From assembly GCA_963677495.2 (NCBI GenBank), contig CAXXOU010000004.1, forward strand, positions 608,001 through 672,000: a DNA stretch of 64,000 nucleotides, in the 5' to 3' direction. This document shows, piece after piece, positions 4,390-57,212 of this stretch. This DNA comes from Candidatus Cloacimonadales bacterium (GTDB lineage Bacteria; Cloacimonadota; Cloacimonadia; Cloacimonadales; JAFGVF01). The position numbers were made by a program, and so were the translations under genes. Each line of letters starts with the position of its first letter. The stretch's first letter is position 1. The notes under the pieces are model-generated. The model searched no databases. It saw only the letters and a program-made list of their open reading frames with translations, and had not been told where the DNA came from.

Positions 4390-5280
4390 ACATTTAGGGC
4401 TTTACTTATTTTTTGATAGCCACTGAAAGCATTTATCTGTACGTCGAACACGTAGGATATGTTGAGCTAGCTATTTCCCTTTCGTAGAGGGGTGCCGTTT
4501 TAACAGTGAGGTGTTTATTCCTTCGAGGTCACCATTTGCAAGGTTTTCAACCATTCCAAAGGTACATATTATAGTGCTTCAACGGAGTTCTTCAGACTGA
4601 TAAGAACTTAAATCCTATGAACAGTTCCAGCTCTAAAGGAGCGATAGTTTAATAGCTCCATGTGACAACTTGACGCTTTGGGTTAAAGCCCTCAGACATT
4701 GTTTTAGCCCTGAATGGGCGTAAGAGTTCTAAAGTTTCAATCTTTCGCCCCTATAGGGTTGCAATCTTCTTTTATTACATTACCACATGCCCAAGCATGT
4801 GGCTATTGAACAGACGCCTCTTCAAGGCAAAAGAACGCTCTTCGAGCTTTGGGCAGGCAAGTTGCATGCCTTAAGTAGGACATGTTGCCAGCCTGTCCGC
4901 TTAGCACAGCTAAGCTTTTCCACTGACGTCAATTAGTATGAATTACTAAAGCTCTTTAGTATTTCCCGATAGGGAAACATAATATTAGCCATGGGGCCAC
5001 GAACCATGGACATGAAACAATAAATCCTCAATCCGATTAGGATTGCACTAATCCAATTTCCAAACAGTGGTATAATACGATCCATGTAGGATTGAAACAA
5101 TAAAATATCCAGCCCATGGGTCGGTTGCCCCATGGCTAGCATTATGCTTTCCTTCGGAAAGAGATTACAACTATATAGCTCCTTTGGACGAGAGCTACGT
5201 TTATCGTCCTTGCCCCACACTAACGTTGCGGTGCAAGTCCGAGGGTTGTAGTTAAGAAATTGTTACAAAATCAAAGATAT
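4390..5280. repeat. Intergenic island of REP-like hairpin modules
   Basis: Shares modules with 50790-51290: 87 bp 4875-4961 vs 50825-50911; 4837-4876 vs 50943-50983; 4473-4515 vs 51160-51233; agccctgaatgggc. Module M3 at 5204-5243. Confidence 0.8.
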
Positions 5281-7248: not shown

Positions 7249-9702
7249 GTGGATATGTCTACAATTCCTGCAATATGGTATATTGCCCCCGCAGGAGCAA
7301 TTATCTCTTTAATTTTCGCCTGGATATTCTTTAAAGAGGTAAAAAACAGTGACCCCGGTACAAAAGAGATGCAAACTATTGCTGCTCATGTTCGAGAAGG
7401 GGCTTTCGCTTATTTAAGGCAGCAATACAAAGGTGTTAGCATCTTCTTTATAGTAGCCTTTATTATTTTCAATGTTATGGCGCATGTTTTACATGTGCTT
7501 CACCCACTTGTTCCAGTTGCATTTTTAACAGGTGGTTTCTTCTCTGGTTTGGCAGGATTCATTGGAATGAACACTGCGACTATGGCATCTAATAGAACTG
7601 CTCAAGCATGTACGAAGAGCCTCAATCAAGGTCTTAAAGTTGCTTTCAGAGCCGGCAGTGTAATGGGGCTTATCGTTGTAGGACTAGCACTTATCGATAT
7701 TACTTTATGGTTCTACTTACTCAATTTCTTTAAAGTAGACCTTGCAACTATCACAGTTATTATGCTTAGTTTTGGTATGGGTGCATCTACTCAAGCTCTT
7801 TTCGCCAGACTTGGTGGTGGTATCTTCACAAAAGCTGCGGATGTAGGTGCTGATCTTGTGGGTAAAGTAGAAGCAGGTATTCCGGAAGATGACCCTCGTA
7901 ACCCGGCTACAATCGCTGATAATGTAGGTGATAATGTAGGTGACGTTGCTGGTATGGGTGCTGACCTTTATGAATCATATGCAGGTTCAATTCTTGCTAC
8001 AGCTGCTCTTGGTATGGCTGCTGTTACACAGAATCCAACTTGGGCAGATTATGCAGTTAAATTTGTTACAGCTCCAATGGTTCTAGCCGGTATCGGAGCA
8101 TTCTTATCAATAATTGGTATTTTCCTTGTATCATCTAAAGAATCTGCAGGAACTAAAGAGCTTATGTTCGCTTTAAACAAAAGTGTTTATGGTAGTTCTG
8201 TTCTTATCGCAATTGCTTCTTTCTTTGTTACAAAACATATGCTTCCTAAAGAACTAGCATTTGGTGTATTTATCTCATCAGTAGTTGGATTGATTGCCGG
8301 TATTCTGATTGGATACTTCACGGAACGCTTCACATCAGACAGTTATAAACCAACTCGAGGTATCTCGAAACAGGGTCAATACGGTCCTGCAACAGTTATT
8401 ATTGATGGACTTGCTGTTGGTATGAAATCTACATTTGCACCTGTAGTAATTATCGGTATCGCTATTCTTATTGCTTTCAGTGTTAGTGGTGGTTGGAATA
8501 GTATCGAAAGTGGTCTCTATGGTATCGGTTTTGGTGCTGTTGGAATGCTTGCAACTCTTGGTGTTACTCTAGCAATGGATGCATTTGGCCCTATCGCTGA
8601 TAATGCCGGTGGTAATGCTGAAATGTGTCATCTTCCTAAAGATGTAAGAAAGAAAACAGATGCTCTTGACTCTGTTGGAAACACTACAGCTGCTACAGGT
8701 AAAGGTTTCGCTATCGGTTCTGCAGCACTTACTGCAATGGCTCTTCTTGCTGCTTATCTCGAAGAGGTTAGAGCAGGATTCGTACATTTAGGTCGTGAAG
8801 CAATTGATGGTGCTCCAATTGCACTAGCATCGGTAGAGAACTTCATTAATCATTACAATGTGCATCTAATGAATCCTAAATTCCTTATCGGTATCTTCCT
8901 TGGTGCTATGACAGCATATCTTTTCTCAGCATACACAATGAAAGCTGTTGGTAATGCAGCCGGTGATATGGTTGCTGAAGTGAGAAGACAGTTCAAAGAG
9001 ATTAAAGGTATTTTAGAAGGGAAAGCTACTCCTGATTATAAACGTTGTGTAATGATATCGACTAAGAGTGCACAGCGTGAGATGCTTCTCCCTGCACTTA
9101 TCGGTATTATAACTCCTATCATTGTAGGTCTTATCCTTGGTGTTGCAGGTGTTCTCGGACTTCTTGCAGGTTCACTTGCAAGTGGGTTAGTGCTTGCTAT
9201 TATGATGAACAACTCAGGTGGTGCTTGGGATAACGCTAAGAAGTTCGTTGAAGCTGGAAACTTTGGTGGTAAAGGCTCTGAAGTTCATAAAGCTACTGTT
9301 GTTGGTGACACTGTGGGTGATCCTTTCAAAGATACAGCCGGTCCATCAATCAACATTCTTATCAAACTTATGAGTATGGTAAGTATTGTTTTTGCAGGGC
9401 TTATTGTGGCGTATTCTCCGGTAATTGAAGCTACTTACTCACCAATCAACGATAACTATTCAATTTCAAAAGAGTGGCAGGCAGCACACCCTACTCAGAG
9501 TGAATGTACACTTCAAACAACAGGCGAAATGTGTGATGATTGTGTAGCTAAAGGTGGTTGTGATTCTGAATGCTTAGAAGATGCATCACATGTTCATGAA
9601 CATGAAGAGCATGAGTGCACAATGGAAACAACCGGAGAGATGTGTGATGATTGCAAAGCTAAAGGCGGATGTGATGAGTCATGTCTTGAAGGCTCACATT
9701 AA
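7249..9702 (+). CDS. hppA: K+-dependent membrane pyrophosphatase (probably Na+-translocating) with a Cys/His-rich C-terminal extension
   Basis: [34 protein letters not shown] (K+-dependent), ADLYESY (Glu at the Na+-PPase position), [10 protein letters not shown]. Confidence 0.93.
9502..9699 (+). repeat. In-frame duplication of a 5-Cys module separated by a His/Glu linker
   Basis: [26 protein letters not shown] / [26 protein letters not shown]. Confidence 0.9.
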
Positions 9703-9810: not shown

Positions 9811-9980
9811 TACACAGCGTCTTTTGCAATAACTTAGCTACATCTCATGTCCTTTTTACTCTCTTTAACTGCTCTATCCATCAACGCACTGTGTTAGCAC
9901 TGTGCACGCACTGTGAAGGCACTGTCAACCCACTGTTTCACTGGGTGCACAGTGCGTGCACAGTGGGAAAACAGTGCGTT
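9811..9980 (+). repeat. ~170-bp element M1 (CACTGTG/CACAGTG 11-bp-period fold-back), copy 1
   Basis: Ungapped similarity to 36284-36453 and 56821-56990; perfect 18-bp inverted repeat 9898-9915 / 9948-9965. Confidence 0.92.
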
Positions 9981-10201
9981 AATAGGGTTTTGGTTGATAG
10001 ATTGATGCAAGAGAAAAGAAACACACTATTACGGGTATGGACTTGAATAATTCTTTATGTAAAAATGCACTAGTTTCTAAACTACATTAGTTTGTCTTCA
10101 TTCATAGCATAACAGAAATTGTTTAATTATTCTAGTAAATTGTGCTTGACACCATCAGCAAATCCATCCAAGACATTTCGGATATACTAAATAGGATAAT
10201 T

Positions 10202-26556: not shown

Positions 26557-26645
26557 AGTAGAGGGTGTACTTATAGTAGTTTTGTGTAAAATAATCTATT
26601 TGACAAATATGAATCTATTATGCTTCTATGTTAATAGGAGGAATA

Positions 26646-29618
26646 ATGAAACATATTATTGCGCTTATTCTTATAGCATTACCTTTAATGCTTTTTGGGT
26701 TTACTACAGTTTCCGGTGATGTTTCAGGTCAGACTTGGAGTACGGGAACTTACTTTGTTGAAAACTATATTTATGTAGAGGCTAATAGCACTTTAACAAT
26801 CGATGAAGGTGTTGTTGTCAAATTTAAAAACAATGAACTTTTAATTATTCGCGGTACACTTATCGCAACAGGTACAGAAATTAATCCGATTTACTTTACT
26901 TCGATTGATGATGATTCTGTTGGTGAGATAATATCAATTGAAAATGGTTCAGATGGAATGCCCGTACCCGGTGATTGGGATGGCATCGACTTGAACGGAT
27001 ACCAAGATGAACATCAAGGTATTGGAGAATTCGACTGGGTAATTGTTAGGTATGGCGGTAAACACTGGGGTAATGCAGATGCTAATGTACACTTTAATCA
27101 CTCAACTTCAGGGCATTTTATCAATAGTGTTAGTGAACACTGCGTTGATCAAGCAATAAAGATAAGTTCTTGCTCACCTGATATCACAGATAGCATTATG
27201 AGATTTAGTGAAAATCAAGGTATCTATGCCAATAACTTTTCAGGTACGCTTAACGGAAATACAGTTTATGACAATGGAAGTCATGGTATTGAAATAGATG
27301 GTCAATCATATCCGGTGGTTGATTATAATCAGTGTGAAGATAATGATGGCTATGGTATTTTACTGGATTACATAAAATTAACAAGTGTGGTTGGCAATAT
27401 AGGTTCTTCAAACACTATGAACGCAATTGCTCTCTCAGGAGAAATTGAAGCAGACTTTGAGTTATCTCCTTCTCCGGATTACCCTTTTGTTATTAACGAT
27501 CTCATTATAGTACATGAAGATGTAGTCTTTACTATTTATCCCGGTTCGATTCTTAAGGTTGAAGACGATAAATGCATTGAAGTCCATGGAACCTTATTTG
27601 CTAATGGTACAGAAGAGAATAGAGTTGTTTTCACATCTATCAAGGATGATTCATATATCGGTGACACCAATGGTGATGGAGATGCCACTTTACCTGAAGC
27701 AGCTGATTGGAGTGGAATCTATTTAGATGGTATGAATGACACTTATCAAGGTATTGGTGAGTTTGATTGGGTTATTGTAAGATATGGTGGTCGACATTGG
27801 AGTGGGGCAGAAGCGAATGTAGCTTTCTTCTTTTCTGAATCAGGACACTTCAATAATTCAATTAGTGAGTACTCTGTTGATCCTGCACTTAGAACCCATG
27901 AGTGCTCAATAGATATTACAAACAGTGTTTTTAGATACAGCGATAATGAAGGTATTAGATGTAACAACTTTAATGGTCTGATTAGTGGTAATCTTGTAAC
28001 AGATAATGGAAGTCACGGTATCAAAGTCGGACAGTATTGCACCCCTACTTTAAATAATAATACTTGCAATTACAATGATGGTTATGGAATCTACTTGGAT
28101 TATATCATTATAACTTCTATGTTTGGGAATACCGGATATGGCAACTCTATGAATGGCATTGCGATGTCAGGTATTATTGAAGAACATACTATTCTTCCTA
28201 ACAATGGTGATTACCCATACATCTTTAATAGCAATGTTACTGTTACGAGTGGGAACAATTTACTTATCCAACATGGTGCTGTAGTTAAGATCGATACTGG
28301 TAATGGTTTGATTGTAGATGGTTCAGTGATTATAGATGGTACAGCTTCGCAACCTGTAATCTTTACCTCTATTATGGATGATTCCTACTGTGGAGACACA
28401 AATAACGACGGAGACGCTACTACTCCCACTCCGGGTTGTTGGAAAGGTATTCATGTCGATGGTCGGATGCCTGATGATGAAGGTATAGGTGAGTTTGATT
28501 GGGCTATAATACGCTATGGTGGTCAACATTGGGGTGAAGTAGAAGCAGGAATCAAATTCAACGAAGCAGAATCAGGATATGTCAATAACTGCATCTTTGA
28601 GTACATAGAGGATGCAGCACTGAAAGTACAGAGCTGCTCTATTGAAGTAAACAACAGTACATTTAGATATAGTCAAGATCGAGGCATCCACTTCATAGAA
28701 TCAAACTCTCTAGTCAGAGGTTGTACCGTAGAAAGCAATGCCGGAGTTGGTATCGATATTGACGGGATTAGTGATGTTAACCTTGGTAACAATGACCTGT
28801 TAGATATGGGATTAAATACTATCAGAGGTAACGATGAAACTGATGGCTTGCAAATTAGAAATGATAATCAAAATCAAATAAATGCTTATTATAATATATG
28901 GGACTATTCTACAGTATCTGAAATTGATGCAGTTATCTATGATGATGAAGAGGATAGTTGGAGAGGTCAAGTAATGTTCGATCCTTGGTTTATCGGAACC
29001 ATAGCAGTTGATTTAGTAACTGATAGCAGCTTAGACTTTGAAACTGTTTCCGGTACTGATGAGATAACATTACCTGTTACAATTCAGAACATTGGTAATG
29101 CTCCTCTTGAAATATGGGAAGTAACAGTAAATGATGATGCCTTTGAATTTGAGTACGATGATACAGAGCTGCCTCCAACAGAACAACTTACTATCAATGT
29201 TACTTTTGACCCAAGTATTGATGGTGATTATTCAGCACAGCTAAGTATCTATAACAACTCTAATAACAATCCTCAAATTGATATTGAGCTAATAGGTACA
29301 GGACTAAATGTTGGCAATGACGATATAGTTAATCCTAATCAATTGACTTTCGCTGCATCTAACTACCCTAACCCTTTCAATCCTACAACATGTATCAAGT
29401 ACACAATCAAAGAGAGAGCTAAGACTACTTTGAAAGTGTATAACATAAAAGGCAGACTCGTGAATACACTTGTTAATGATATGAAAGATGCCGGAAAGCA
29501 TGAAGTTATTTGGAATGGCATTGATCATAACAATAAGCATGTAGCATCAGGAGTTTACTTCTATCGTTTGCAGAGTTCCAATGACTGCTTAACTAAGAAG
29601 ATGATACTTATGAAATAG
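26646..29618 (+). CDS. Secreted right-handed beta-helix repeat protein with Ig-like and FlgD/T9SS-like C-terminal domains
   Basis: ATG after GGAGG, three repeats containing FTSI.DD..GD...P..GDW.GI...GIGEFDW.I.RYGG.HW, NYPNPFNP CTD. Confidence 0.88.
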   Translation: MKHIIALILIALPLMLFGFTTVSGDVSGQTWSTGTYFVENYIYVEANSTLTIDEGVVVKFKNNELLIIRGTLIATGTEINPIYFTSIDDDSVGEIISIENGSDGMPVPGDWDGIDLNGYQDEHQGIGEFDWVIVRYGGKHWGNADANVHFNHSTSGHFINSVSEHCVDQAIKISSCSPDITDSIMRFSENQGIYANNFSGTLNGNTVYDNGSHGIEIDGQSYPVVDYNQCEDNDGYGILLDYIKLTSVVGNIGSSNTMNAIALSGEIEADFELSPSPDYPFVINDLIIVHEDVVFTIYPGSILKVEDDKCIEVHGTLFANGTEENRVVFTSIKDDSYIGDTNGDGDATLPEAADWSGIYLDGMNDTYQGIGEFDWVIVRYGGRHWSGAEANVAFFFSESGHFNNSISEYSVDPALRTHECSIDITNSVFRYSDNEGIRCNNFNGLISGNLVTDNGSHGIKVGQYCTPTLNNNTCNYNDGYGIYLDYIIITSMFGNTGYGNSMNGIAMSGIIEEHTILPNNGDYPYIFNSNVTVTSGNNLLIQHGAVVKIDTGNGLIVDGSVIIDGTASQPVIFTSIMDDSYCGDTNNDGDATTPTPGCWKGIHVDGRMPDDEGIGEFDWAIIRYGGQHWGEVEAGIKFNEAESGYVNNCIFEYIEDAALKVQSCSIEVNNSTFRYSQDRGIHFIESNSLVRGCTVESNAGVGIDIDGISDVNLGNNDLLDMGLNTIRGNDETDGLQIRNDNQNQINAYYNIWDYSTVSEIDAVIYDDEEDSWRGQVMFDPWFIGTIAVDLVTDSSLDFETVSGTDEITLPVTIQNIGNAPLEIWEVTVNDDAFEFEYDDTELPPTEQLTINVTFDPSIDGDYSAQLSIYNNSNNNPQIDIELIGTGLNVGNDDIVNPNQLTFAASNYPNPFNPTTCIKYTIKERAKTTLKVYNIKGRLVNTLVNDMKDAGKHEVIWNGIDHNNKHVASGVYFYRLQSSNDCLTKKMILMK

Positions 29619-33883: not shown

Positions 33884-34944
33884 TTAACCTTTAAGACCAC
33901 TGGAAGCGTAACTGGCAATAATGTTCTTTTGTGCAATCAAGAATAGTATAAGTAGTGGTAAAACACTAAATGTTGAAGCTGCCATCAACAAGGATGTTTG
34001 TGAGGAAGCTTCTTGTGAAAAGTAACTAAGACCAACCTGAAGCACACGAAGCTGTGGACTATTAGTCATCACAAGTGGCCACATGAAACTATTCCAACTA
34101 CCGATAACCGAAATATGGAAGCAGTTGCAATTACAGGCTTACTTAGTGGTAAGACGATTCTCCAGAGCATTCCGAATCTACTGCAACCATCGATTGAAGC
34201 AGCATCAAAGAGATCTTTCGGTAATGTTTTGAAGTGTTGTCTAAAGAGGAAAATTGTAAATATATTTGCCATCCAAGGCACAATCAATGCATAGTATGTA
34301 TCAATCCAACCCAGATAGTTAAGTATAAGGTAGGAAGGAATAAGATATATGGGTTGTGGAACCATCATCATACTAATGAACAGATAGAAGATGAAATCTT
34401 TGCCATAGAACTCCATTCTTGCAAAGGCATAAGCAGCAAGTGCTGAAGTGATAAGTACACCAATAAGTGTACAGAATGCTATGATAATTGTATTTAGGAA
34501 GTATCTGGCAAAAGGTACTTTCTGGAAGGCTGTCTTGTAGTTATCCCAATGAACTCTAAACTTCTTCACTGTTTTAACACTCTCAGGCTCAACTTTCAAG
34601 TACTCATTACTCTTGAAAGTAAAAGGCACATCTTTGCCACCTTCTTTAACTTGAACTGTAATCTCATGTTCATCTTGAAGGATGATGTTACCTGACTTAT
34701 CGAATAACGCTACAACTGTGCCATCTGCATCCTCTTTCACAACATTAGCAGCAAACTTCTTACCATCAGGTGCAGTGTATTCGGTATAATGGTCTAAAGC
34801 AAAAAAGCCAACGTTACCTTTATTCACTTCCTGTTGAGATTTAATTGATGTAGTCATCATCCAAAGGAATGGTACTACCATAAGGAAGCCACAGATAGCG
34901 AGAATAGTATACTTAATGATTGATCTTATTTTCTGTTCCATCAT
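33884..34944 (-). pseudogene. Carbohydrate ABC permease (MalG/UgpE type), split by a 1-bp deletion near 34112 (possibly a sequencing error)
   Basis: EAA-like DAASIDGC; adding one T restores IFSVIGSWNSFMWPL and joins the 291-aa and 66-aa ORFs. Confidence 0.88.
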
Positions 34945-34951
34945 TCCTCCT

Positions 34952-35887
34952 TTAATAGTGAACCTTTTTCTCAGTACGCTTCTGGAATAGAGTCAGACCA
35001 AGAATTATGAGGAACAGAACGAGTGCTACAGCACTTGCATAACTAAAGTCATTTTTATCAATACCTTGCTCAAATATATAGTAAACAATCAATTTTGTTG
35101 TTCCCTGAGGACCACCGATAGGAGGACCTGTCATCAGGTAAACCTGTGAGAAAGTTTGGAAAGTTGTAATAGTAGTCATCATCAACACATAAAATGTTGT
35201 TGGAGAGACCAGAGGGAGTGTAATGTTAAAGAACTGACGTCTTTTACTAGCTCCATCAATCTCTGCAGCTTCATAATATACATTGGAGATGTTCTGTAAA
35301 CCGGCTAAGTAGATAATTGTGTTGTATCCAAGGCTTTTCCAGATAGAAACCATAATAATACAGAAGAGTGCAAGTGAAGGTCCACCTGCCCAAGCCGGTA
35401 AATCAATACCAAAGTTCTGCATGAAAAGAGTGTTGATTCCTGTCGGTTCTGCAAGCCATTTCAAAGGTTCTAATCCAACCATACGGAATAAGTAATTAGC
35501 TAATCCACTCTGTTGGTTAAAGATAATCTTCCAGATGATGGAAACCGCAACTAACGAAGTTACAAATGGAATAAAATAAAGGGTACGGAAAAAAGATACA
35601 AACTTCTTAATACCATTTAACAATGTTGCAAAGGTGAGTGATAGTATAATACTCAATGGCACTACATAGATAACAACATAGAAAGTGTTTAGTAGTGATT
35701 GCCAGAAATATTTATCTGTAATAAGTCTCGAATAGTTTTGAATCCCAATAAATTCACCGGGTCCGGTAATCGACCAGTTAAAGAAACTCAAAATAAACGA
35801 AAGAATAATTGGTACAAACCTGAACGCTAATATTATTATAAAAGCCGGTAAGACATAAAGATAAGGCTTGAAGCTTTTTTTATTCAT
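34952..35887 (-). CDS. Carbohydrate ABC transporter permease (MalF/UgpA type)
   Basis: FIGIQNY, YEAAEIDGA EAA loop, ITLPL.SPT. Confidence 0.92.
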   Translation of the reverse strand: MNKKSFKPYLYVLPAFIIILAFRFVPIILSFILSFFNWSITGPGEFIGIQNYSRLITDKYFWQSLLNTFYVVIYVVPLSIILSLTFATLLNGIKKFVSFFRTLYFIPFVTSLVAVSIIWKIIFNQQSGLANYLFRMVGLEPLKWLAEPTGINTLFMQNFGIDLPAWAGGPSLALFCIIMVSIWKSLGYNTIIYLAGLQNISNVYYEAAEIDGASKRRQFFNITLPLVSPTTFYVLMMTTITTFQTFSQVYLMTGPPIGGPQGTTKLIVYYIFEQGIDKNDFSYASAVALVLFLIILGLTLFQKRTEKKVHY

Positions 35888-36143
35888 CTGATTTTTCCTG
35901 CATACTTTATTTAGTCTAACAAAAAATATGCCTGTTTCAAGGTGTCAAATTATATTTGTGTAAAGGTGGGAAGAAGAGATTAAAAGATAAGTCAATACTT
36001 CAACAGAAATCAACTAAAGCCACCCGAGAGACCCGGAAGTTGTGCGCCTTTCGGCTTACGAGCTCCTCCCGATGATCGTCGGTTCGACTTTGTCCATTCC
36101 ATTTCTCTTCATTCACTCCGCTCAGGGAGACATACACAGTGCA

Positions 36144-36224
36144 ATTTGCAATAACTTACCGCATTTCAGGGAGTTTATCGGCCTGATAAGGCTACGGACT
36201 TCCTAAAATGCACTCCGAAGTCGC
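36144..36224 (+). repeat. Dispersed hairpin module M2, copy 1
   Basis: 81-bp ungapped match to 56691-56771. Confidence 0.9.
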
Positions 36225-36236
36225 ATGTACCTGATT

Positions 36237-36277
36237 TCTTTCTCGCGTCACGCTATCGCTGCAACGCAAGTCCGAAA
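36237..36277 (+). repeat. Dispersed hairpin module M3
   Basis: ttctcgcgtcacgctatcgctgcaacgcaagtccga resembles 5204-5243 and 54030-54070. Confidence 0.75.
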
Positions 36278-36283
36278 GAGACA

Positions 36284-36453
36284 TACACAGTGCCTTTTTC
36301 AATAACTTAGCTATATTTATTGCCCTTTGTACTCGCTTTTACTGCACTATCTATCAACGCACTGTGTCTGCACTGCGCACGCACTGTGAAGGCACTGCTA
36401 ACCCACTGTTTCACTGGGTGCACAGTGCGTGCACAGTGGGAAAACAGTGGGAA
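36284..36453 (+). repeat. Element M1, copy 2
   Basis: Ungapped match to 9811-9980 and 56821-56990. Confidence 0.92.
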
Positions 36454-36681
36454 GACTTCGATTTGGTAAAGAGCTTACTCAAAGTTTGCGATATCGCAAA
36501 AGAGATACAACTGTAAGATGACCCAGGAAGAAGTGATTCACAACGAAGTGGGAATCGCTAATTCCGATTACTCTAAGTCAGGCTGTCAATGGCAGTGAGA
36601 AATGGTACACGATGGCAGTGAAAAGTGGTACAAAACTGCCAACCTTTAAAAATGACTACTTCAAGACAGTTTGGAGTAGGT

Positions 36682-38157
36682 ATGATTGGAGTAGAAGTGT
36701 ATCATTCAATAAAAACTATGCATAAGCAAGGGCATAGTCAGCGTAAGATCGCAGAGGAGTTGTCTCTATCAAAGACAACAGTAGGTAAATACATAAATAT
36801 GACACTTGATGAGTTCATGGAACTAATAAACAATAGCATTCGTGAAAGCAGTTTTGCCATATGTGAGCAATATGTCCGCGAAAGGCTTAGCAAATATCCA
36901 CGATTAAGAGCTAGTGTACTATATTTAGAAGTTAAGAAAAAGTTCCCTGAGATAAAAGCAAAAGACAGAGCTTTCCGAGATTTTGTTCGTAAGCTAAAGC
37001 AGACTTATCCTGTCGATAAATACCGTAATTATGCAGTAATCGAGACGGCTCCCGGTGTTCAGGTTCAAGTTGATCCAGGTGAGATGAAAGTAGTTTTGGG
37101 TAATAAACGTCAAAGAGTTTATTTTATAGTTTTTGTGCTTTCCCACTCGCGTCAAAGCTATGTCCATTGGAGCACAACACCATATAACACATCAAGGTTT
37201 ATTGAAGCTCATCGTGAAGCTTTTATCTATTTTGAAGGTATCCCTTCAGAGTGTGTTTACGACCAGACAAAGCTTGTAGTAATACAGGAACGCTATCGGG
37301 AAGTAATCTTAAATAATCAGTTCCATCAGTTTGCAGCAAAAACGGGCTTTCATCCTCATGTATGCGAAGGCTATGATCCACAAAGCAAGGGTAAAGTAGA
37401 GCGTAATGTCTCAGAAGTAAAGCATGGCTTTATGTATGGCAAAGAGTTCAAAGACCTGGCAGACCTGCGTTCACGCGGACTTGAGTGGCTTTTACACTTT
37501 AACGGCAGAACCCATGGCACAACCCGTAAAGTACCATCAGAAGTATGGCAAGAAGAGAGGTTAAAGCTAAAAGATATTCCAGAGTTTATCTTCACTTTAG
37601 AAGTTCGTAATGCAGATAAAACAGGCTTAATCTCGTATGAGGGTAATAAGTACTCTGTTCCATTAGAGTATCAGCGAAAACAGGTATATGTGCAAAAAGA
37701 AAAGAGCACTTTAGTGGTGATGGATATTTATACAAGAAAGGAAATCTGCCAACATGAGCTATGCACAGAAAAAGGCAAAATCATCAAAAACACTAATCAT
37801 TATCGGGATTTTACGGTAGTGCTACAAGAGCTTATTGAGCGAGTAAAGGATGAGATGAGTGAATATATCCAAGGAGAAGAACTAATCCAGAGGCTTGTTA
37901 ATGATAACCCTAAAATAGCAAGGGATCAGTTGAGAGCCTTAAGCAAGTTTAAGCGTAACTATGAAACAGATGTATGGGAGTCAGTGCTTCCTGAGGTAAT
38001 GACTCTTTCGCATGTAAAGGCAACAGCCATAGAGAAGCTTCTGAATGCAAAAGTAAGACAAATGAAGCTAAATGAATTATCAGAATCAGAACCACAACAA
38101 GACTCAGAGAGTTCATTAATAGAGCGCTCATTAGATGACTACATGAAGGTGTTATAA
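36682..38157 (+). CDS. istA: IS21 transposase IstA
   Basis: N-terminal HTH, PG.Q.QVD, YDQ, PQSKGKVER (DDE); ATG 36682 after GGAG. Confidence 0.95.
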   Translation: MIGVEVYHSIKTMHKQGHSQRKIAEELSLSKTTVGKYINMTLDEFMELINNSIRESSFAICEQYVRERLSKYPRLRASVLYLEVKKKFPEIKAKDRAFRDFVRKLKQTYPVDKYRNYAVIETAPGVQVQVDPGEMKVVLGNKRQRVYFIVFVLSHSRQSYVHWSTTPYNTSRFIEAHREAFIYFEGIPSECVYDQTKLVVIQERYREVILNNQFHQFAAKTGFHPHVCEGYDPQSKGKVERNVSEVKHGFMYGKEFKDLADLRSRGLEWLLHFNGRTHGTTRKVPSEVWQEERLKLKDIPEFIFTLEVRNADKTGLISYEGNKYSVPLEYQRKQVYVQKEKSTLVVMDIYTRKEICQHELCTEKGKIIKNTNHYRDFTVVLQELIERVKDEMSEYIQGEELIQRLVNDNPKIARDQLRALSKFKRNYETDVWESVLPEVMTLSHVKATAIEKLLNAKVRQMKLNELSESEPQQDSESSLIERSLDDYMKVL

Positions 38158-38158
38158 G

Positions 38159-38890
38159 ATGATAGAGATAACTAAAACATACATCAAAAGGGCTCGTTGT
38201 ACTCATATTTTGAATACTCTTGAAAGTGCAGTTTTAGAAGCAGAGAAACAGAATATGACTTATCTGGAGTTCGTACATTATCTATTTGAAAAAGAGAACT
38301 CAGGAAGGAATCAAACCAATATCAACAGAAGACTTAAACAGGCTCACATCCCGGTAATAAAGACCTTTGATGAGTTCGACTATGCTTATCAACAAGTAAT
38401 AACCAAAAGACAAGTAAAGGAGTGGAAGAACTTTGTCTGGCTGGAGCAGAGGAGGAATATAATTTTAATGGGACCTCCGGGAGTAGGTAAGACTCATGTT
38501 GCAACAGCACTCAGTTATGAAGCAATAAAGGCAGGCTATAAGGTGGTGTTTTATAATCTGAACAACCTTATCGAAGAACTTGTACTAGCTGAAGCAGATA
38601 ACAACATAGATAAATATCTAAGCAATATAGCCAAGAATGATCTGATAGTTATAGATGAGATGGGGTATCTTCCTCTCCAGACAAAGGCAGCTAATCTGTT
38701 CTTTAGACTCATCCATCTCTTATACGAATTTAGATCAGTAATCATAACATCGAATAGGTTGTTTAATGAATGGGGAGCTATTTTTAACGACAATGTGATA
38801 GCAACTGCTATTCTTGATAGATTACTCCATCACTCACAACCAATTACAATGCTCGGAGATAGCTTTAGACTAAGGAATTTTCAAAAATGA
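38159..38890 (+). CDS. istB: IS21 helper ATPase IstB
   Basis: GPPGVGKTH, IDEMGY, ITSN, AILDRLLHH. Confidence 0.96.
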   Translation: MIEITKTYIKRARCTHILNTLESAVLEAEKQNMTYLEFVHYLFEKENSGRNQTNINRRLKQAHIPVIKTFDEFDYAYQQVITKRQVKEWKNFVWLEQRRNIILMGPPGVGKTHVATALSYEAIKAGYKVVFYNLNNLIEELVLAEADNNIDKYLSNIAKNDLIVIDEMGYLPLQTKAANLFFRLIHLLYEFRSVIITSNRLFNEWGAIFNDNVIATAILDRLLHHSQPITMLGDSFRLRNFQK

Positions 38891-39083
38891 AGACTGTACC
38901 ATTTTTAAATGCCAAACTGTACCAATTTAAAATGCCATTGACAGTCAGGCTCGTTCTCGTCACAAGAAACTTCACTTATCAGCTATGTGTTCAAAGGTAC
39001 TTAGTTATAACGCAAATTCGAAAAAAGATTTGACACTTACAAGTACTAATTGATGTTTAGAAACACCCTATGTATAGAGGGTT

Positions 39084-39099
39084 TGGAACGCGAATTGCA
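39084..39099 (+). promoter_or_regulatory. Sigma-54 (-24/-12) promoter candidate
   Basis: TGGAACGCGAATTGCA = GG-N10-GC, 35 bp before ATG 39134. Confidence 0.7.
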
Positions 39100-39133
39100 T
39101 ATAATTGAAAATATATAGTAAGTTGGAGGAATA

Positions 39134-40213
39134 ATGCGTAAATTGCTTTATTTATTAATTGTCTCATTGTTATTGGTTGCATGTGCGGAAGCTGGTGATC
39201 CTGTAACTACAGAACCGAATCCTGATAACGAAGTACTGCTTTGGAATCAGAACATTGCTATCAACGGATATGCAGAGGATATCAAAGCTTATGATGACTA
39301 CGTTTTAGTTGCTGAGGATAGAGCCGGTGTATCTGTAATTGATACTGAAACTCTTGATAGAACTTGGATAACATCACTCGCTAATGATACCGGTTCACAA
39401 GAACTTATAGATAATAATAATATCGCTCTAGTTCCTGAAAGAAATATCTTTGCCTTCTCAGAGTCTGATGAAGCTGATCAAGTCATATTTGCAAACATTG
39501 AAGATCTTAACAACCCATATTATGTTGGTTACACTCTGGGTGGTGTTTCAGCAGTTAGTGAGTTAACTGTAAAGTATGTAGAGGAAGTTATTCCTGATCA
39601 GATGGGACAAGCTGTACCGATATTTGAATATACTTTATCTTCAGGTAACTATATCAAAAAAGGTGAATATGGTTATTATTATATTGAAGGTATGGAACCG
39701 GATTATTTGAATCTTGGATTTAGTGTTGATATTAATGTTGAGAACAAGATTAATGGTTTTGATGAAGATGAAGACTATTACTATGTAGCATCAGGTCAAA
39801 GAGGTTTTAAGATTGTAGAAAAAACAGCAACATCCGGTAATGTAATTGCTGATGTTGATACACCCGGTGATACTCAGAAGTTAACTATTGTTGGTAATTA
39901 TCTGTATGTTGCATGTAGGCAGGAAGGTCTTTATGTGTATGATGTAACAGACAGAACAAATCCTGTTGCTGAACCTATTTATACTAAAAGCATTTCCGGT
40001 ATAGCAGTTGATATAGATTACGATGGCAATCATTTAGCTCTTGCTTGTTCAAGTGGTGGTGTATATCTCTTTGATGTTGAAGATCCTGCTAACCCATCTT
40101 ATATAGAAAAAGATTCATCTCACTACTCACATGCATACTGTGTTGCTGTTAAGGACAACAAAGTGTATGTTGGTGGTAGAGATATAGTAGCTGTTTACGC
40201 AATAGAACAATAG
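39134..40213 (+). CDS. LVIVD-repeat beta-propeller lipoprotein
   Basis: Lipobox LVAC; repeats such as YLYVAC..EGLYVYDVTD..NP. Confidence 0.85.
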   Translation: MRKLLYLLIVSLLLVACAEAGDPVTTEPNPDNEVLLWNQNIAINGYAEDIKAYDDYVLVAEDRAGVSVIDTETLDRTWITSLANDTGSQELIDNNNIALVPERNIFAFSESDEADQVIFANIEDLNNPYYVGYTLGGVSAVSELTVKYVEEVIPDQMGQAVPIFEYTLSSGNYIKKGEYGYYYIEGMEPDYLNLGFSVDINVENKINGFDEDEDYYYVASGQRGFKIVEKTATSGNVIADVDTPGDTQKLTIVGNYLYVACRQEGLYVYDVTDRTNPVAEPIYTKSISGIAVDIDYDGNHLALACSSGGVYLFDVEDPANPSYIEKDSSHYSHAYCVAVKDNKVYVGGRDIVAVYAIEQ

Positions 40214-50789: not shown

Positions 50790-51290
50790 ATATGTATTTC
50801 GACATCGACGGTGCACGTCGAAACGTAGGACACGCTGCTAGCTTGTCCGCTTAGCAGAGCTAAGCCCCGCCACTGAAGTTAATTAGTATGATTTACTGAA
50901 GCTCTTTAGTAATTATCTTCAGGTTCAGTCTCGTAAAATACAGCTCTGTCGAGCTGTGGGCAAGCAGGCTGCATGCCCTACGTGACAGCCCTGAATGGGC
51001 TGAATATGAATAGCCCCGGGTTTTATGAACCCGGGGTCAAGTATCTCAAAAAACATTTAGAACCCTGAAGGGGTTCAACGATTCCTTGACAAAGAAAATG
51101 ATGCTTCTTAAATAAAGACATAACCAAAGGGTAGACCTACGGGTTTGCCCTTTTTCCTAATTTCCCTTTTGGCCTATCGGGGCGAAGCCTTTGGCGAAGA
51201 CCGAAGGGGTGCCATTGTAAACGGCGGGGTGGTAAAGTAACCCCTCACCTTAATCCTCTCCCCAAAGGGGCGAGGAGACAAAATAAAGCA
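50790..51290. repeat. Intergenic island of REP-like hairpin modules
   Basis: GTAGGACA..TGTCC, GGGCA..TGCCCTAC, ccccgggtt..aacccgggg, agggtagacc..ggtttgccct; modules shared with 4390-5280. Confidence 0.8.
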
Positions 51291-53720: not shown

Positions 53721-54070
53721 CTTATAGCCTATAGCCTATAGTTAAGCTGTCACCATAGCGACCGAATGGGAGTCGGGTCAATAGCGGACATGTGGCATAA
53801 TTCATAACTATGAGTCCAACTTGTTTCAGATTTAGAAAAGAAGTCCGTTTTCGCTCGTAAACTTCGTTCTGACAAACTCCTTTTCTAAACCTGAAACTCG
53901 CTATGACTCCAATGATAAGGTGTGATTCGCTAATTCCGTCATTCGAAGCAGTTTTCGTTCTCGTGTAAGTCTGAAGTTGTGTGACAAGACAAACCTACAT
54001 AGTAGGTTAAATCCATAATATTGCATATTTCGTTCTCGCACCACACTTCGCTGCGGTGCAAGTCCGAAGG
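53718..54070. repeat. Intergenic island: 7-mer tandem, M6, long hairpin, M4, M7, M3
   Basis: tagctta/tagccta/tagccta 53718-53742; M6 53757-53786; gtttcagatttagaaaag...cttttctaaacctgaaac; M7 53981-54016; M3 54030-54070. Confidence 0.8.
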
Positions 54071-56648: not shown

Positions 56649-56690
56649 ATATTACCAAGTTTACTCCTAGCATATAAGCTATTCAGTGGG

Positions 56691-56771
56691 ATTTGCAATA
56701 ACTTACTGCATTTCAGGGAGTTTGCCGGTCTGATAAGGCAACGGACTTCCTAAAGTGCACTCCGAAGTTGC
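56691..56771 (+). repeat. Module M2, copy 2
   Basis: Ungapped match to 36144-36224. Confidence 0.9.
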
Positions 56772-56820
56772 TATTCGCCCATCTCCCTTTGGTCGCTATA
56801 GCTCCAGCTTCCGATTTAGT

Positions 56821-56990
56821 TACACAGTGCCTTTTACAATAACTTAGCTATCTTTATTGCCCTTTTTACTCTCTTTTACTGCTCTATGCAGCAACGCGCT
56901 GTGTCTGCACTGTGCACCCACTGTGAAGGCACTGCCAACCCACTGTTTCACTGGGTGTACAGTGCGTGCACAGTGGGAAAACAGTGGGAT
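56821..56990 (+). repeat. Element M1, copy 3
   Basis: Ungapped match to 9811-9980 and 36284-36453. Confidence 0.92.
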
Positions 56991-57212
56991 GATTGCGTTT
57001 TGTCTTATGGCTTGTATCAACTGCATAGATATTTTGTTATATTGGAAGAAATGAGTCGTAATGAAATGTAATCGCCAACTCCGGAACACGAAGGTTGATT
57101 TGTTCTAGCGATAAATTATTGTTATGACGACTGTCCATAGTTCTCGCATCAAGAACCTTTTCTCAAAGCTTCTCCATGATAAGACACTTTAAAATGCAAT
57201 TGGTTATCTCAT

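Follow-up and report, generated by a model that had tools for sequence, protein, structure and literature searches.

The closest described relatives of the repeats reported here are REP (repetitive extragenic palindromic) sequences with their bacterial interspersed mosaic elements (BIMEs) and the BOX elements. How the tandem arrays of both kinds grow is still argued and, to our knowledge, work on such mosaics has been limited almost entirely to Proteobacteria and streptococci. Here, we analyze a stretch of 64 kb (the window; positions 608001–672000 of contig C4) from the 3.41-Mb, four-contig genome of an uncultured member of the Cloacimonadota (G000), in which a 26-nt direct repeat with the pattern TAYWCAGYGNNWTTTNCAATAACTTA, termed the head in the following, punctuates arrays of hairpin modules. 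These arrays represent a previously undescribed system of BIME/BOX-like mosaic repeats that have a linker or end motif in common. The reading that we favor, with a probability of roughly 0.55, is that the head is the conserved 5′ end of a genus-specific non-coding element, M1, and serves in addition as the junction motif of the mosaics, at which units are added or swapped.

In E. coli, Pseudomonas, and Stenotrophomonas, REP/BIME clusters and REPtrons are described together with Y1 transposases, the REP-associated tyrosine transposases (RAYTs, TnpA-REP) (PMC3333891; PMC3116915; PMC3337134). The BIMEs of E. coli consist of REP and inverse REP (iREP) sequences joined by conserved linkers, the L linker often carrying a site for integration host factor (IHF), and their tandem copy number varies between loci and strains (PMC3333891). 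According to the same source, TnpA-REP cleaves at iREP and linker sites in vitro and recombines them, and this activity has been proposed as the origin of BIME variability and amplification (PMC3333891). Genes for RAYTs can have long flanking terminal inverted repeats (TIRs) that spawned moderately abundant repeat families (PMC3733652). The pneumococcal BOX element is given as boxA-(boxB)n-boxC, its counterpart in S. suis as boxD modules with boxE/F flanks, and BOX has been reported with TIRs and target-site duplications (TSDs) (PMC3049150).

In the window, TAYWCAGYGNNWTTTNCAATAACTTA occurs at positions 9811, 36133, 36284, 56680, and 56821, always on the + strand, ungapped and without a single mismatch. 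The chance expectation is 0, as no match appeared in 100 dinucleotide-preserving shuffles of the window, even when two mismatches were allowed. We refer to a head with the core hairpin and tail behind it as a unit and to stacked units as an array. All three loci (9811, 36133, and 56680) are intergenic. The original prediction, made from the letters of this DNA, had named exactly these five sites, had put the distance between the repeats at 151 nt in one tandem locus (36133 to 36284) and at 141 nt in the other (56680 to 56821), had read the order at both as repeat, M2 hairpin, variable part, repeat, M1, and had found only the repeat and M1 at 9811. Sequence and repeat finder agree with it on all of these points, and its length of 28 bp is accounted for by the conserved motif, which runs about 3 nt further in the 5′ direction as ACA. 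The variable part at 56772–56820, which it called an unrelated sequence, is no unique stretch but a second tail module, T2, of which the genome holds 44 copies (counted, like all module copies below, by BLAST with at least 60% coverage).

Read on the + strand, the first tandem locus is preceded by a T3-type module without a head (35982–36132), which ends in GCTCAGGGAGACA and which we read from the sequence as part of the same mosaic cluster. The head of the M2 unit (36133–36158), the predicted hairpin of the M2 core (36159–36224), and the M3 tail (36225–36283) follow, and then the head of M1 (36284–36309) and the M1 body (36310–36465), which has inverted arms, is delimited by a consensus of 66 copies and contains CACTG/CAGTG words in 11-nt phase at 36360–36449. 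Next comes one of the alternative modules found behind M1 (36466–36505), with the perfect 16-bp palindrome TTTGCGATATCGCAAA at 36485–36500, which by its appearance resembles an operator. The second tandem locus comprises a head (56680–56705), an M2 core hairpin (56706–56771) with 90% identity to 36137–36224, the T2 tail hairpin (56772–56820), which takes the place of M3 and is common to M4 and M5 units, a second head (56821–56846), and the M1 body (56847–57002; repeat finder and 66-copy consensus). The solo element has its head at 9811–9836 and its M1 body with inverted arms at 9837–9992, 3′ of a gene for a H+-pyrophosphatase.

The whole genome contains 35, 84, 121, and 129 head matches at 0, 1, 2, and 3 mismatches, respectively, while the reversed pattern yields none at any of these settings. 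When heads on the same strand are chained at distances of up to 400 nt, the 129 heads fall into 73 loci. Of these, 25 hold a single head, 41 hold a pair, six hold three, and one holds four. Within loci the orientation is always direct, and pairs on opposite strands do not occur within 400 nt. The spacings cluster at 138–142 nt (27 intervals) and 150–152 nt (22 intervals), with the remaining seven spanning 107 to 340 nt. All but six heads (123 of 129) lie outside crude calls of open reading frames (ORFs) of at least 120 amino acids. Comparison of the 60 nt 3′ of each head with five 25-nt signatures (up to eight edits) assigned M1 to 66 heads, M2 to 34, M4 to 14, M5 to 10, and M6 to four; behind the single unclassified head, M1 is cut after 13 nt by an insertion sequence (IS). 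The most common arrangements are M2-M1 (25), M1 alone (19), M4-M1 (8), M5-M1 (4), and M6-M1 (3), and one array each reads M2-M2-M1, M5-M5-M1, M2-M4-M1, M4-M4-M1, M5-M2-M1, M4-M2-M1, M5-M5-M5-M1, and M2-??. Six loci lack M1 (three M2, two M4, and one M6), and in three of these a copy of an IS21-like element sits between the units and an M1. The grammar is (Mx)n-M1, with up to four units and 16 different arrangements. M1 is terminal in 67 of the 73 loci and never internal, whereas any unit or M1 alone can start an array, a fixed 5′ terminal module being absent.

A genome scan for a limited set of exchangeable modules and for longer arrays had been suggested by the original prediction, and it reveals both: five module types and arrays of up to four units (e.g., M5-M5-M5-M1). 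It also bears on the idea that the repeat always precedes the same fixed sequence and thus goes back to one old internal duplication within a single miniature inverted-repeat transposable element. Several copies in a congeneric genome (G002) share one layout, in which three head variants (a, b, and c, in this order) are separated by spacers and M1 follows head c, and fit such an origin, but for the genome studied here it is refuted by five unrelated module types in 16 arrangements behind the head, and we regard it as scarcely tenable.

The consensus of the head is TACACAGTGC(C/A/G)(T/A)TTT(G/T)CAAT(A/G)ACTTA. Its 5′ junction reads ACA followed by TACACAGTG, with the border between the two; the three bases outside this border are themselves conserved (A 71%–76%, C 70%–77%, and A 79%–85%), and at the 3′ end the head closes with CAATAACTTA. 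The 5′ half contains CACAGTG, i.e., one inverted copy of the M1 word, and the first M1 word, GCACTGTGT, recurs inverted in the head as TACACAGTGC. In the 66-copy consensus, the words of M1 are spaced at 11 nt and comprise five direct CACTG, one that is offset, and three that are inverted. The last 10 nt of the head fit CAANNNNTTR in 122 of 129 cases. The head is not a dyad, and its variants track the following module weakly, position 12 being T in 65% of the heads of M1 and A in 71% of the others. A helical phase common to the head and the M1 words was considered and rejected, as their offset of 135 nt, counted by hand on the consensus, is no multiple of 11.

Heads are not distributed evenly over the modules. 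Practically every M1 body carries one (65 of 66, the exception being a copy split by an IS), and 65 of the 67 phased-word cores have a head within 350 nt, the other two being parts of IS-split copies. The hairpins, on the other hand, often do without: a full head, judged by a position-weight score, precedes 36 of 49 copies of the M2 core, 14 of 26 copies of the M4 core, 10 of 41 copies of the M5 core, and only three of 21 M6-like copies. The head therefore belongs primarily to M1, as its obligatory 5′ end, and is optional for the hairpins, which carry it almost only where they are stacked 5′ of M1. A sister element with the same type of head and a different word lies at C1:461496 on the − strand, where, behind a head with three mismatches, CCAAG/CTTGG words recur every 11 nt before short tandem repeats set in.

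The units themselves are mosaics of head, core hairpin, and tail, as is apparent when they are listed side by side. M2 units of 149–152 nt (n = 22) have the M3 tail, those of 140–141 nt have T2 or an arm of M6 as the tail, and units of 184–246 nt contain extra inserts; the tail of M4 and M5 cores is mostly T2. All three types of tail end in (R)ACA before a head. The M2 core and the tails are predicted to fold into hairpins. The M2 stem pairs are nearly invariant, with three fixed G–T pairs on the array strand; double changes occur in two of 16 stem pairs, too little variation to judge covariation. The inserts between heads measure 110–125 nt, recur across loci, and contain no ORFs. The genome holds 42 copies of M3. 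Modularity extends beyond the arrays: upstream flanks match one another in BLAST comparisons and reveal head-less repeat modules 5′ of 40 of the 73 arrays, and alternative modules appear again 3′ of M1, where about 16 of 66 aligned rows continue into the module with the TTTGCGATATCGCAAA palindrome (alignment read by eye). Head-less copies of the M4 core, the M5 core, and T2 are also found in the window, at 478–540, at about 700–741 (− strand), and at 53745–53790. Elsewhere in the genome, several head-less M4 cores are preceded by another conserved motif ending in GGGAAAATTGTTAGTGGAAAATT, which may be a second kind of head.

The tight bond between head and M1 can also be explained by the movement of M1 itself. 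The head would then be the left-end binding site of a transposase that mobilizes M1, any head further upstream could serve as an alternative end, hairpins between heads would be carried along, and new M1 copies would land 3′ of hairpin tails, between ACA and TA. Such a history would account for a head that is obligatory for M1 and contains the word of its platform, for the invariable last position of M1, for the (R)ACA at the end of all three tail types, and for congeners in which two or three motifs resembling the head lie upstream of a single M1 core; dispersed end sites together with packed sites and a bending site might be compared with the ends of Tn7, Mu, or IS21-type elements. What makes us consider this course of events unlikely is that no autonomous copy exists, all 67 phased-word cores being short elements, that M2 and M1 of one array do not share a genealogy (see below), contrary to what movement of whole arrays would produce, and that no TSD is seen (whole-array flanks were not screened). 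The head itself is not a long TSD because heads within an array (identity 0.875) are no more alike than heads of different arrays (0.854), and this candidate was rejected. The sequence TTAC is present at the junction in all hairpin units that bear a head, and TA precedes eight of 12 listed M2 cores without a full head (13 in all; read by eye). An IS608-like insertion target TTAC, formed by the TTA at the end of the head and the following C, was therefore considered and is retained as a lead only; head-less copies of M4 and M5 do not have such a context. A derivation of M1 from the neighboring IS21-like element was considered and set aside; the end repeats of the two resemble each other loosely.

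The genome has 14 matches to the Pfam family Y1_Tnp (PF01797), 13 of them above the cut-off and one with an internal stop, and nearly all of the Y1 genes are flanked on one or both sides by sequence that is present in 5–85 copies. For six larger Y1 proteins (171–209 amino acids), NF047646, “REP-associated tyrosine transposase,” is the sole NCBIfam match, with one score above the cut-off (92.7 versus 80 bits) and five below it (37.7–75.9 bits); among the paralogs of 147 amino acids, one representative just exceeds the IS200/IS605 cut-off. The M3 tail holds the inverted 34-nt repeat of the RAYT-like gene C2:350349–350978, around which this core occurs five times upstream and once downstream with 94%–100% identity and inverted relative to the copies in the arrays, so that M3 looks like the REP of this gene. 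The 3′ arm of the M6 hairpin lies directly upstream and the 5′ arm directly downstream of C3:76613–77188 (88%–89% identity), and M6 looks like a gene-less doublet of the terminal inverted repeats of that gene. Hairpin cores and tails are palindromes of the REP/REPIN type, at least two of which can be assigned to RAYT (Y1, HUH) genes of this genome. An array with M2 core, M4 core, T2 tail, and M1 body is situated upstream of C4:1048444–1049124, the own flanking repeat of which is different.

With the REP/BIME systems the arrays share high-copy intergenic palindromes (here 21–49 copies per module) that are assembled into mosaics with conserved non-palindromic linkers, a varying number of tandem units, Y1 genes flanked by their own repeats (here for M3 and M6), IS elements inserted into the repeats, and a linker type with an IHF-like motif, the 3′ half of the head resembling an IHF-type bending site like that of the L linker of BIME-1 from E. 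coli. The arrays differ from these systems in several respects: a single 26-nt linker heads hairpins of several families, the arrays end in a phased-word element of 180 nt, for which BIMEs have no counterpart, and the head cannot be linked to any RAYT gene. Of the tetranucleotides conserved at one foot of REP hairpins (GTAG or CGTC), GTAG is not visible by eye at the foot of the M2, M4, M5, and M6 hairpins; M3 contains CGTC. BOX elements, likewise, are composite non-coding repeats with a small vocabulary of modules, a fixed terminal module, variable internal modules, and sizes that differ between loci. BOX, however, is fixed at both ends and has no shared punctuation motif, whereas the arrays described here have a fixed module at the 3′ end only (M1) and repeat the same head at the start of each unit; furthermore, no TIRs or TSDs were found (whole-array flanks were not screened for duplications). 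Families derived from RAYT TIRs and REPINs are matched by M6, a long hairpin with arms that bracket a RAYT-like gene and about 21 gene-less copies elsewhere, but as the head is present on only three of 21 M6 copies, this relationship explains a module and not the head.

A short direct repeat that alternates with variable inserts in one orientation is also reminiscent of integrons and of CRISPR arrays, but the inserts here are devoid of ORFs and a small set of them recurs across 73 loci. A search of the genome for PF00589, Cas1, and CRISPR identified no integrase or cas gene adjoining the arrays. The Cas1 gene (C4:297471–298148) is located next to the single CRISPR array (C4:295810–296867), which has 17 repeats with a period of 66 nt, unrelated to the head. 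Membership in the integrons was rejected in the absence of an adjoining IntI-type recombinase and of ORF cassettes, and membership in CRISPR was rejected because the “spacers” between heads recur across loci and the real CRISPR repeat of the genome is a different one. A dedicated site-specific recombination or insertion system of the integron or shufflon kind, with the head as its core site, would explain why a limited set of modules is found behind an identical site, why the modules have separate histories, and why the one identical tract shared by two arrays (see below) has the size of a unit. We judge it highly improbable, as the nearest heads (C4:98199/98350 and C4:1481751) are about 6 kb and 23 kb away from the only two PF00589 genes (C4:104792 and C4:1505021; serine recombinases were not searched), the modules are free of ORFs, the head lacks dyad symmetry, and the hairpin modules often occur elsewhere without it.

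The histories of the modules were compared using a maximum-likelihood tree that was built with a quick procedure from 64 M1 bodies (159 nt per body, head excluded; C1:461496 with its different word family and the IS-interrupted C4:1307397 were left out). The upstream partner (none, M2, M4, M5, or M6) changes 29 times on this tree, compared with 32.1 ± 1.8 times in 1000 label shuffles, 8.4% of which reached 29 changes or fewer. For 20 M2-M1 arrays with M2 units of 148–152 nt, the distances of M2 and M1 are weakly correlated (Mantel r 0.24, p 0.08), and the nearest neighbors agree in none of the 20 cases. Neighboring modules appear, at the level of these sequence comparisons, to have decoupled genealogies. 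Two arrays, C2:75192 and C4:1280269, share an exact tract of 181 nt that extends from −14 to +167 relative to the head, i.e., one M2 unit and conserved bases on either side, while they resemble each other to about 90% in the M1 body and to about 80% in the upstream modules. Adjacent units of the same type are more similar than the average of their family in five of six pairs: four M5 pairs with identities of 0.986, 0.92, 0.914, and 0.90 (non-adjacent mean 0.871) and one M2 pair with 0.928 (non-adjacent mean 0.784). Local tandem duplication together with unit-sized copying between loci would fit these data, regardless of whether the copying occurs by gene conversion or transposition. The proposal of the original prediction that the repeat is a site of recombination, insertion, or processing through which modules are added or exchanged finds backing, as far as addition or exchange is concerned, in the decoupled modules and the unit-sized tract, but not in the sense of a cassette system of the integron or CRISPR type.

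The repeat family is confined to one genus. The 321-nt array has matches in G000 and all three congeners (G001–G003), which cover only head and M1, and none in the 37 genomes searched that represent further genera of this family and order. A relaxed head pattern matches 11, 12, and 13 times in G001, G002, and G003 (reversed control: 0, 0, and 1) and not at all in G004 and G005. In G001, an M1-type body mostly follows directly 3′ of the head, and in G003 heads are followed by segments of 85–110 nt and then by a second head-like motif with M1. The last-mentioned order is also present 3′ of the pyrophosphatase gene in G003, with about 85 nt between the head and the head-like motif that precedes M1; at this position there are only head and M1 in G000 and no element in G001 and G002. 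The complete congener G001 shows no synteny across the regions that flank the loci at 9811 and 56680. In a collection of genome contigs, the head pattern was detected at 15 loci, nine of them in three Cloacimonadota records of metagenome-assembled genomes (MAGs), which include “Candidatus Zophobacter franzmannii” and Cloacimonadota/Cloacimonadales MAGs; the other six are singletons in unrelated MAGs with 0–1 CACTG/CAGTG words downstream and were taken as chance matches. A collection of metagenome contigs yielded 20 loci, of which three repeat sequences of the “Candidatus Zophobacter franzmannii” MAG and 17 have no M1-like continuation. Among the literature on Cloacimonadota repeats, intergenic regions, and transposases and on RAYT, REPIN, and BIME, no paper on this repeat family was found (supplementary files not covered).

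According to the reading favored here, an array is a one-directional stack of units, each made of head, hairpin core, and tail hairpin, that is closed by one M1, which consists of the head and a platform of CACTG words in 11-nt phase. The head would be a docking site for proteins, with CACAGTG in its 5′ half and a T-run plus CAATAACTTA in its 3′ half that resembles an IHF-type bending site. Units would be added or swapped at heads along two routes. One of them would be local tandem duplication between neighboring heads; the other would copy precise units from locus to locus, through gene conversion that is primed by homology of heads and tails or, alternatively, through single-strand cleavage and strand transfer of the RAYT type at linker sites, like that of E. 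coli TnpA-REP in vitro. One IHF-like protein (C4:176519–176785) and one HU-like protein are encoded in the genome, both scoring below the NCBIfam equivalog cut-offs.

A number of observations weigh against this reading. The 13-nt window TTGCAATAACTTA of the head matches only seven of the nine specified positions of WATCAANNNNTTR, which was taken as the IHF consensus from its co-occurrence with IHF in the literature, and the head conserves two “N” positions of that consensus to about 98%, beyond what an IHF site needs. At the 13 intact Y1 loci, none of the cognate flanks is the head, the M1 body, the M2, M4, or M5 core, or T2. All units are direct, as opposed to the alternating REP and iREP of the E. 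coli BIMEs, and the multi-head composite of G002 looks fixed in its order. Apart from IS copies and the M1 core, the 181-nt tract is the sole exact match between arrays that exceeds 102 nt, and the units of the adjacent M4-M4 pair are less alike (0.773) than the average of non-adjacent copies (0.813). The genealogy tests are based on short sequences (125–159 nt) of about 88% identity and a quick tree, and the weak association of modules could reflect low resolution or homogenization. Finally, 53 of the 72 arrays with called neighbors are co-oriented with the downstream gene, and this bias could point to a role of an RNA or a promoter.

The latter point leads to a further explanation, namely that the head is a promoter or RNA-processing signal and that the arrays are tandem genes for small RNAs (sRNAs) or elements of untranslated regions. 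The 72 arrays are distributed over 28 divergent, 25 tandem co-oriented, nine tandem opposite, and 10 convergent gaps, such that, besides the excess of co-orientation in tandem contexts (25 versus nine), divergent gaps are over-represented (28 of 72 arrays compared with 11% of all intergenic gaps). In addition, the three G–T pairs of the M2 stem pair only on the array strand. Neither strand of the 64-kb window, however, gave a match to an Rfam family at gathering score, and on the + strand of 35850–36650 neither a sigma-70-like promoter nor an intrinsic terminator was recognized, although the type of promoter may differ in this phylum. About two thirds of the arrays point with the leading strand, as deduced from GC skew and as genes do, and the orientation bias can therefore not be assigned to transcription rather than replication. 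The distance to neighboring genes shows no sharp preference. Taken by itself, we consider an RNA-related function of the head quite unlikely.

Downstream of the first tandem locus, an element of the IS21 family occupies 36584–38943 and is flanked by the 7-bp direct repeat GTCAGGC (36577–36583 and 38944–38950). Its ORFs encode an IstA-like protein (36625–38157; rve and Mu-transposase C-terminal domains) and an IstB-like protein (38159–38890). The genome contains 17 copies, each with a flanking duplication of approximately 6–8 bp, and since their identity is at least 99.8% they have spread recently. Six of the 17 copies have a head within 300 bp, among them insertions into M1 and into an M2 unit. 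In a comparison directed at module-order polymorphism across 34900–39500, contigs from four DNA runs of one sample (Logan) were interrupted at the repeats, and the joints observed were matches of other copies of these repeats. Segments 4875–4964 and 50825–50914 (84% identity) are members of another dispersed family, a copy of which lies downstream of the IS200-type gene C1:910648–911109. The H+-pyrophosphatase ORF (7249–9702) matches its Pfam family with residues 18–715 of 817, and its C-terminal extension, a tail also present in congeners, contains a tandem cysteine-rich repeat (9501–9564 and 9612–9675, 80% DNA identity). A 996-amino-acid ORF (26628–29618) has three copies of a 77-nt segment spaced by exactly 732 nt (27013–28553), which indicates, as far as can be read from the DNA, an internal domain repeat of about 244 amino acids.

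For annotation, the results explain about 73 intergenic blocks of 0.2–0.8 kb and caution against calling ORFs or sRNAs there. The arrays are most likely selfish or structural DNA that is tolerated between genes and not a gene-carrying device. The genome offers about a dozen RAYT loci, several hairpin families, one common junction motif, and a strict grammar of direct units. If units are indeed added at the head, it provides a defined sequence for testing linker cleavage and strand transfer of the RAYT type or recombination between heads, and it would further show how the repeat families of different transposases are assembled into common structures. A bolder and quite doubtful idea is that the head is a common docking or attachment site that loads hairpins of different RAYT families in one orientation upstream of the M1 platform. 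If true, cross-talk of several domesticated single-strand transposases with one DNA-binding and DNA-bending complex would have produced an ordered, genome-wide “rack,” and the 73 racks would be nucleoprotein or regulatory landmarks in front of genes and not junk.

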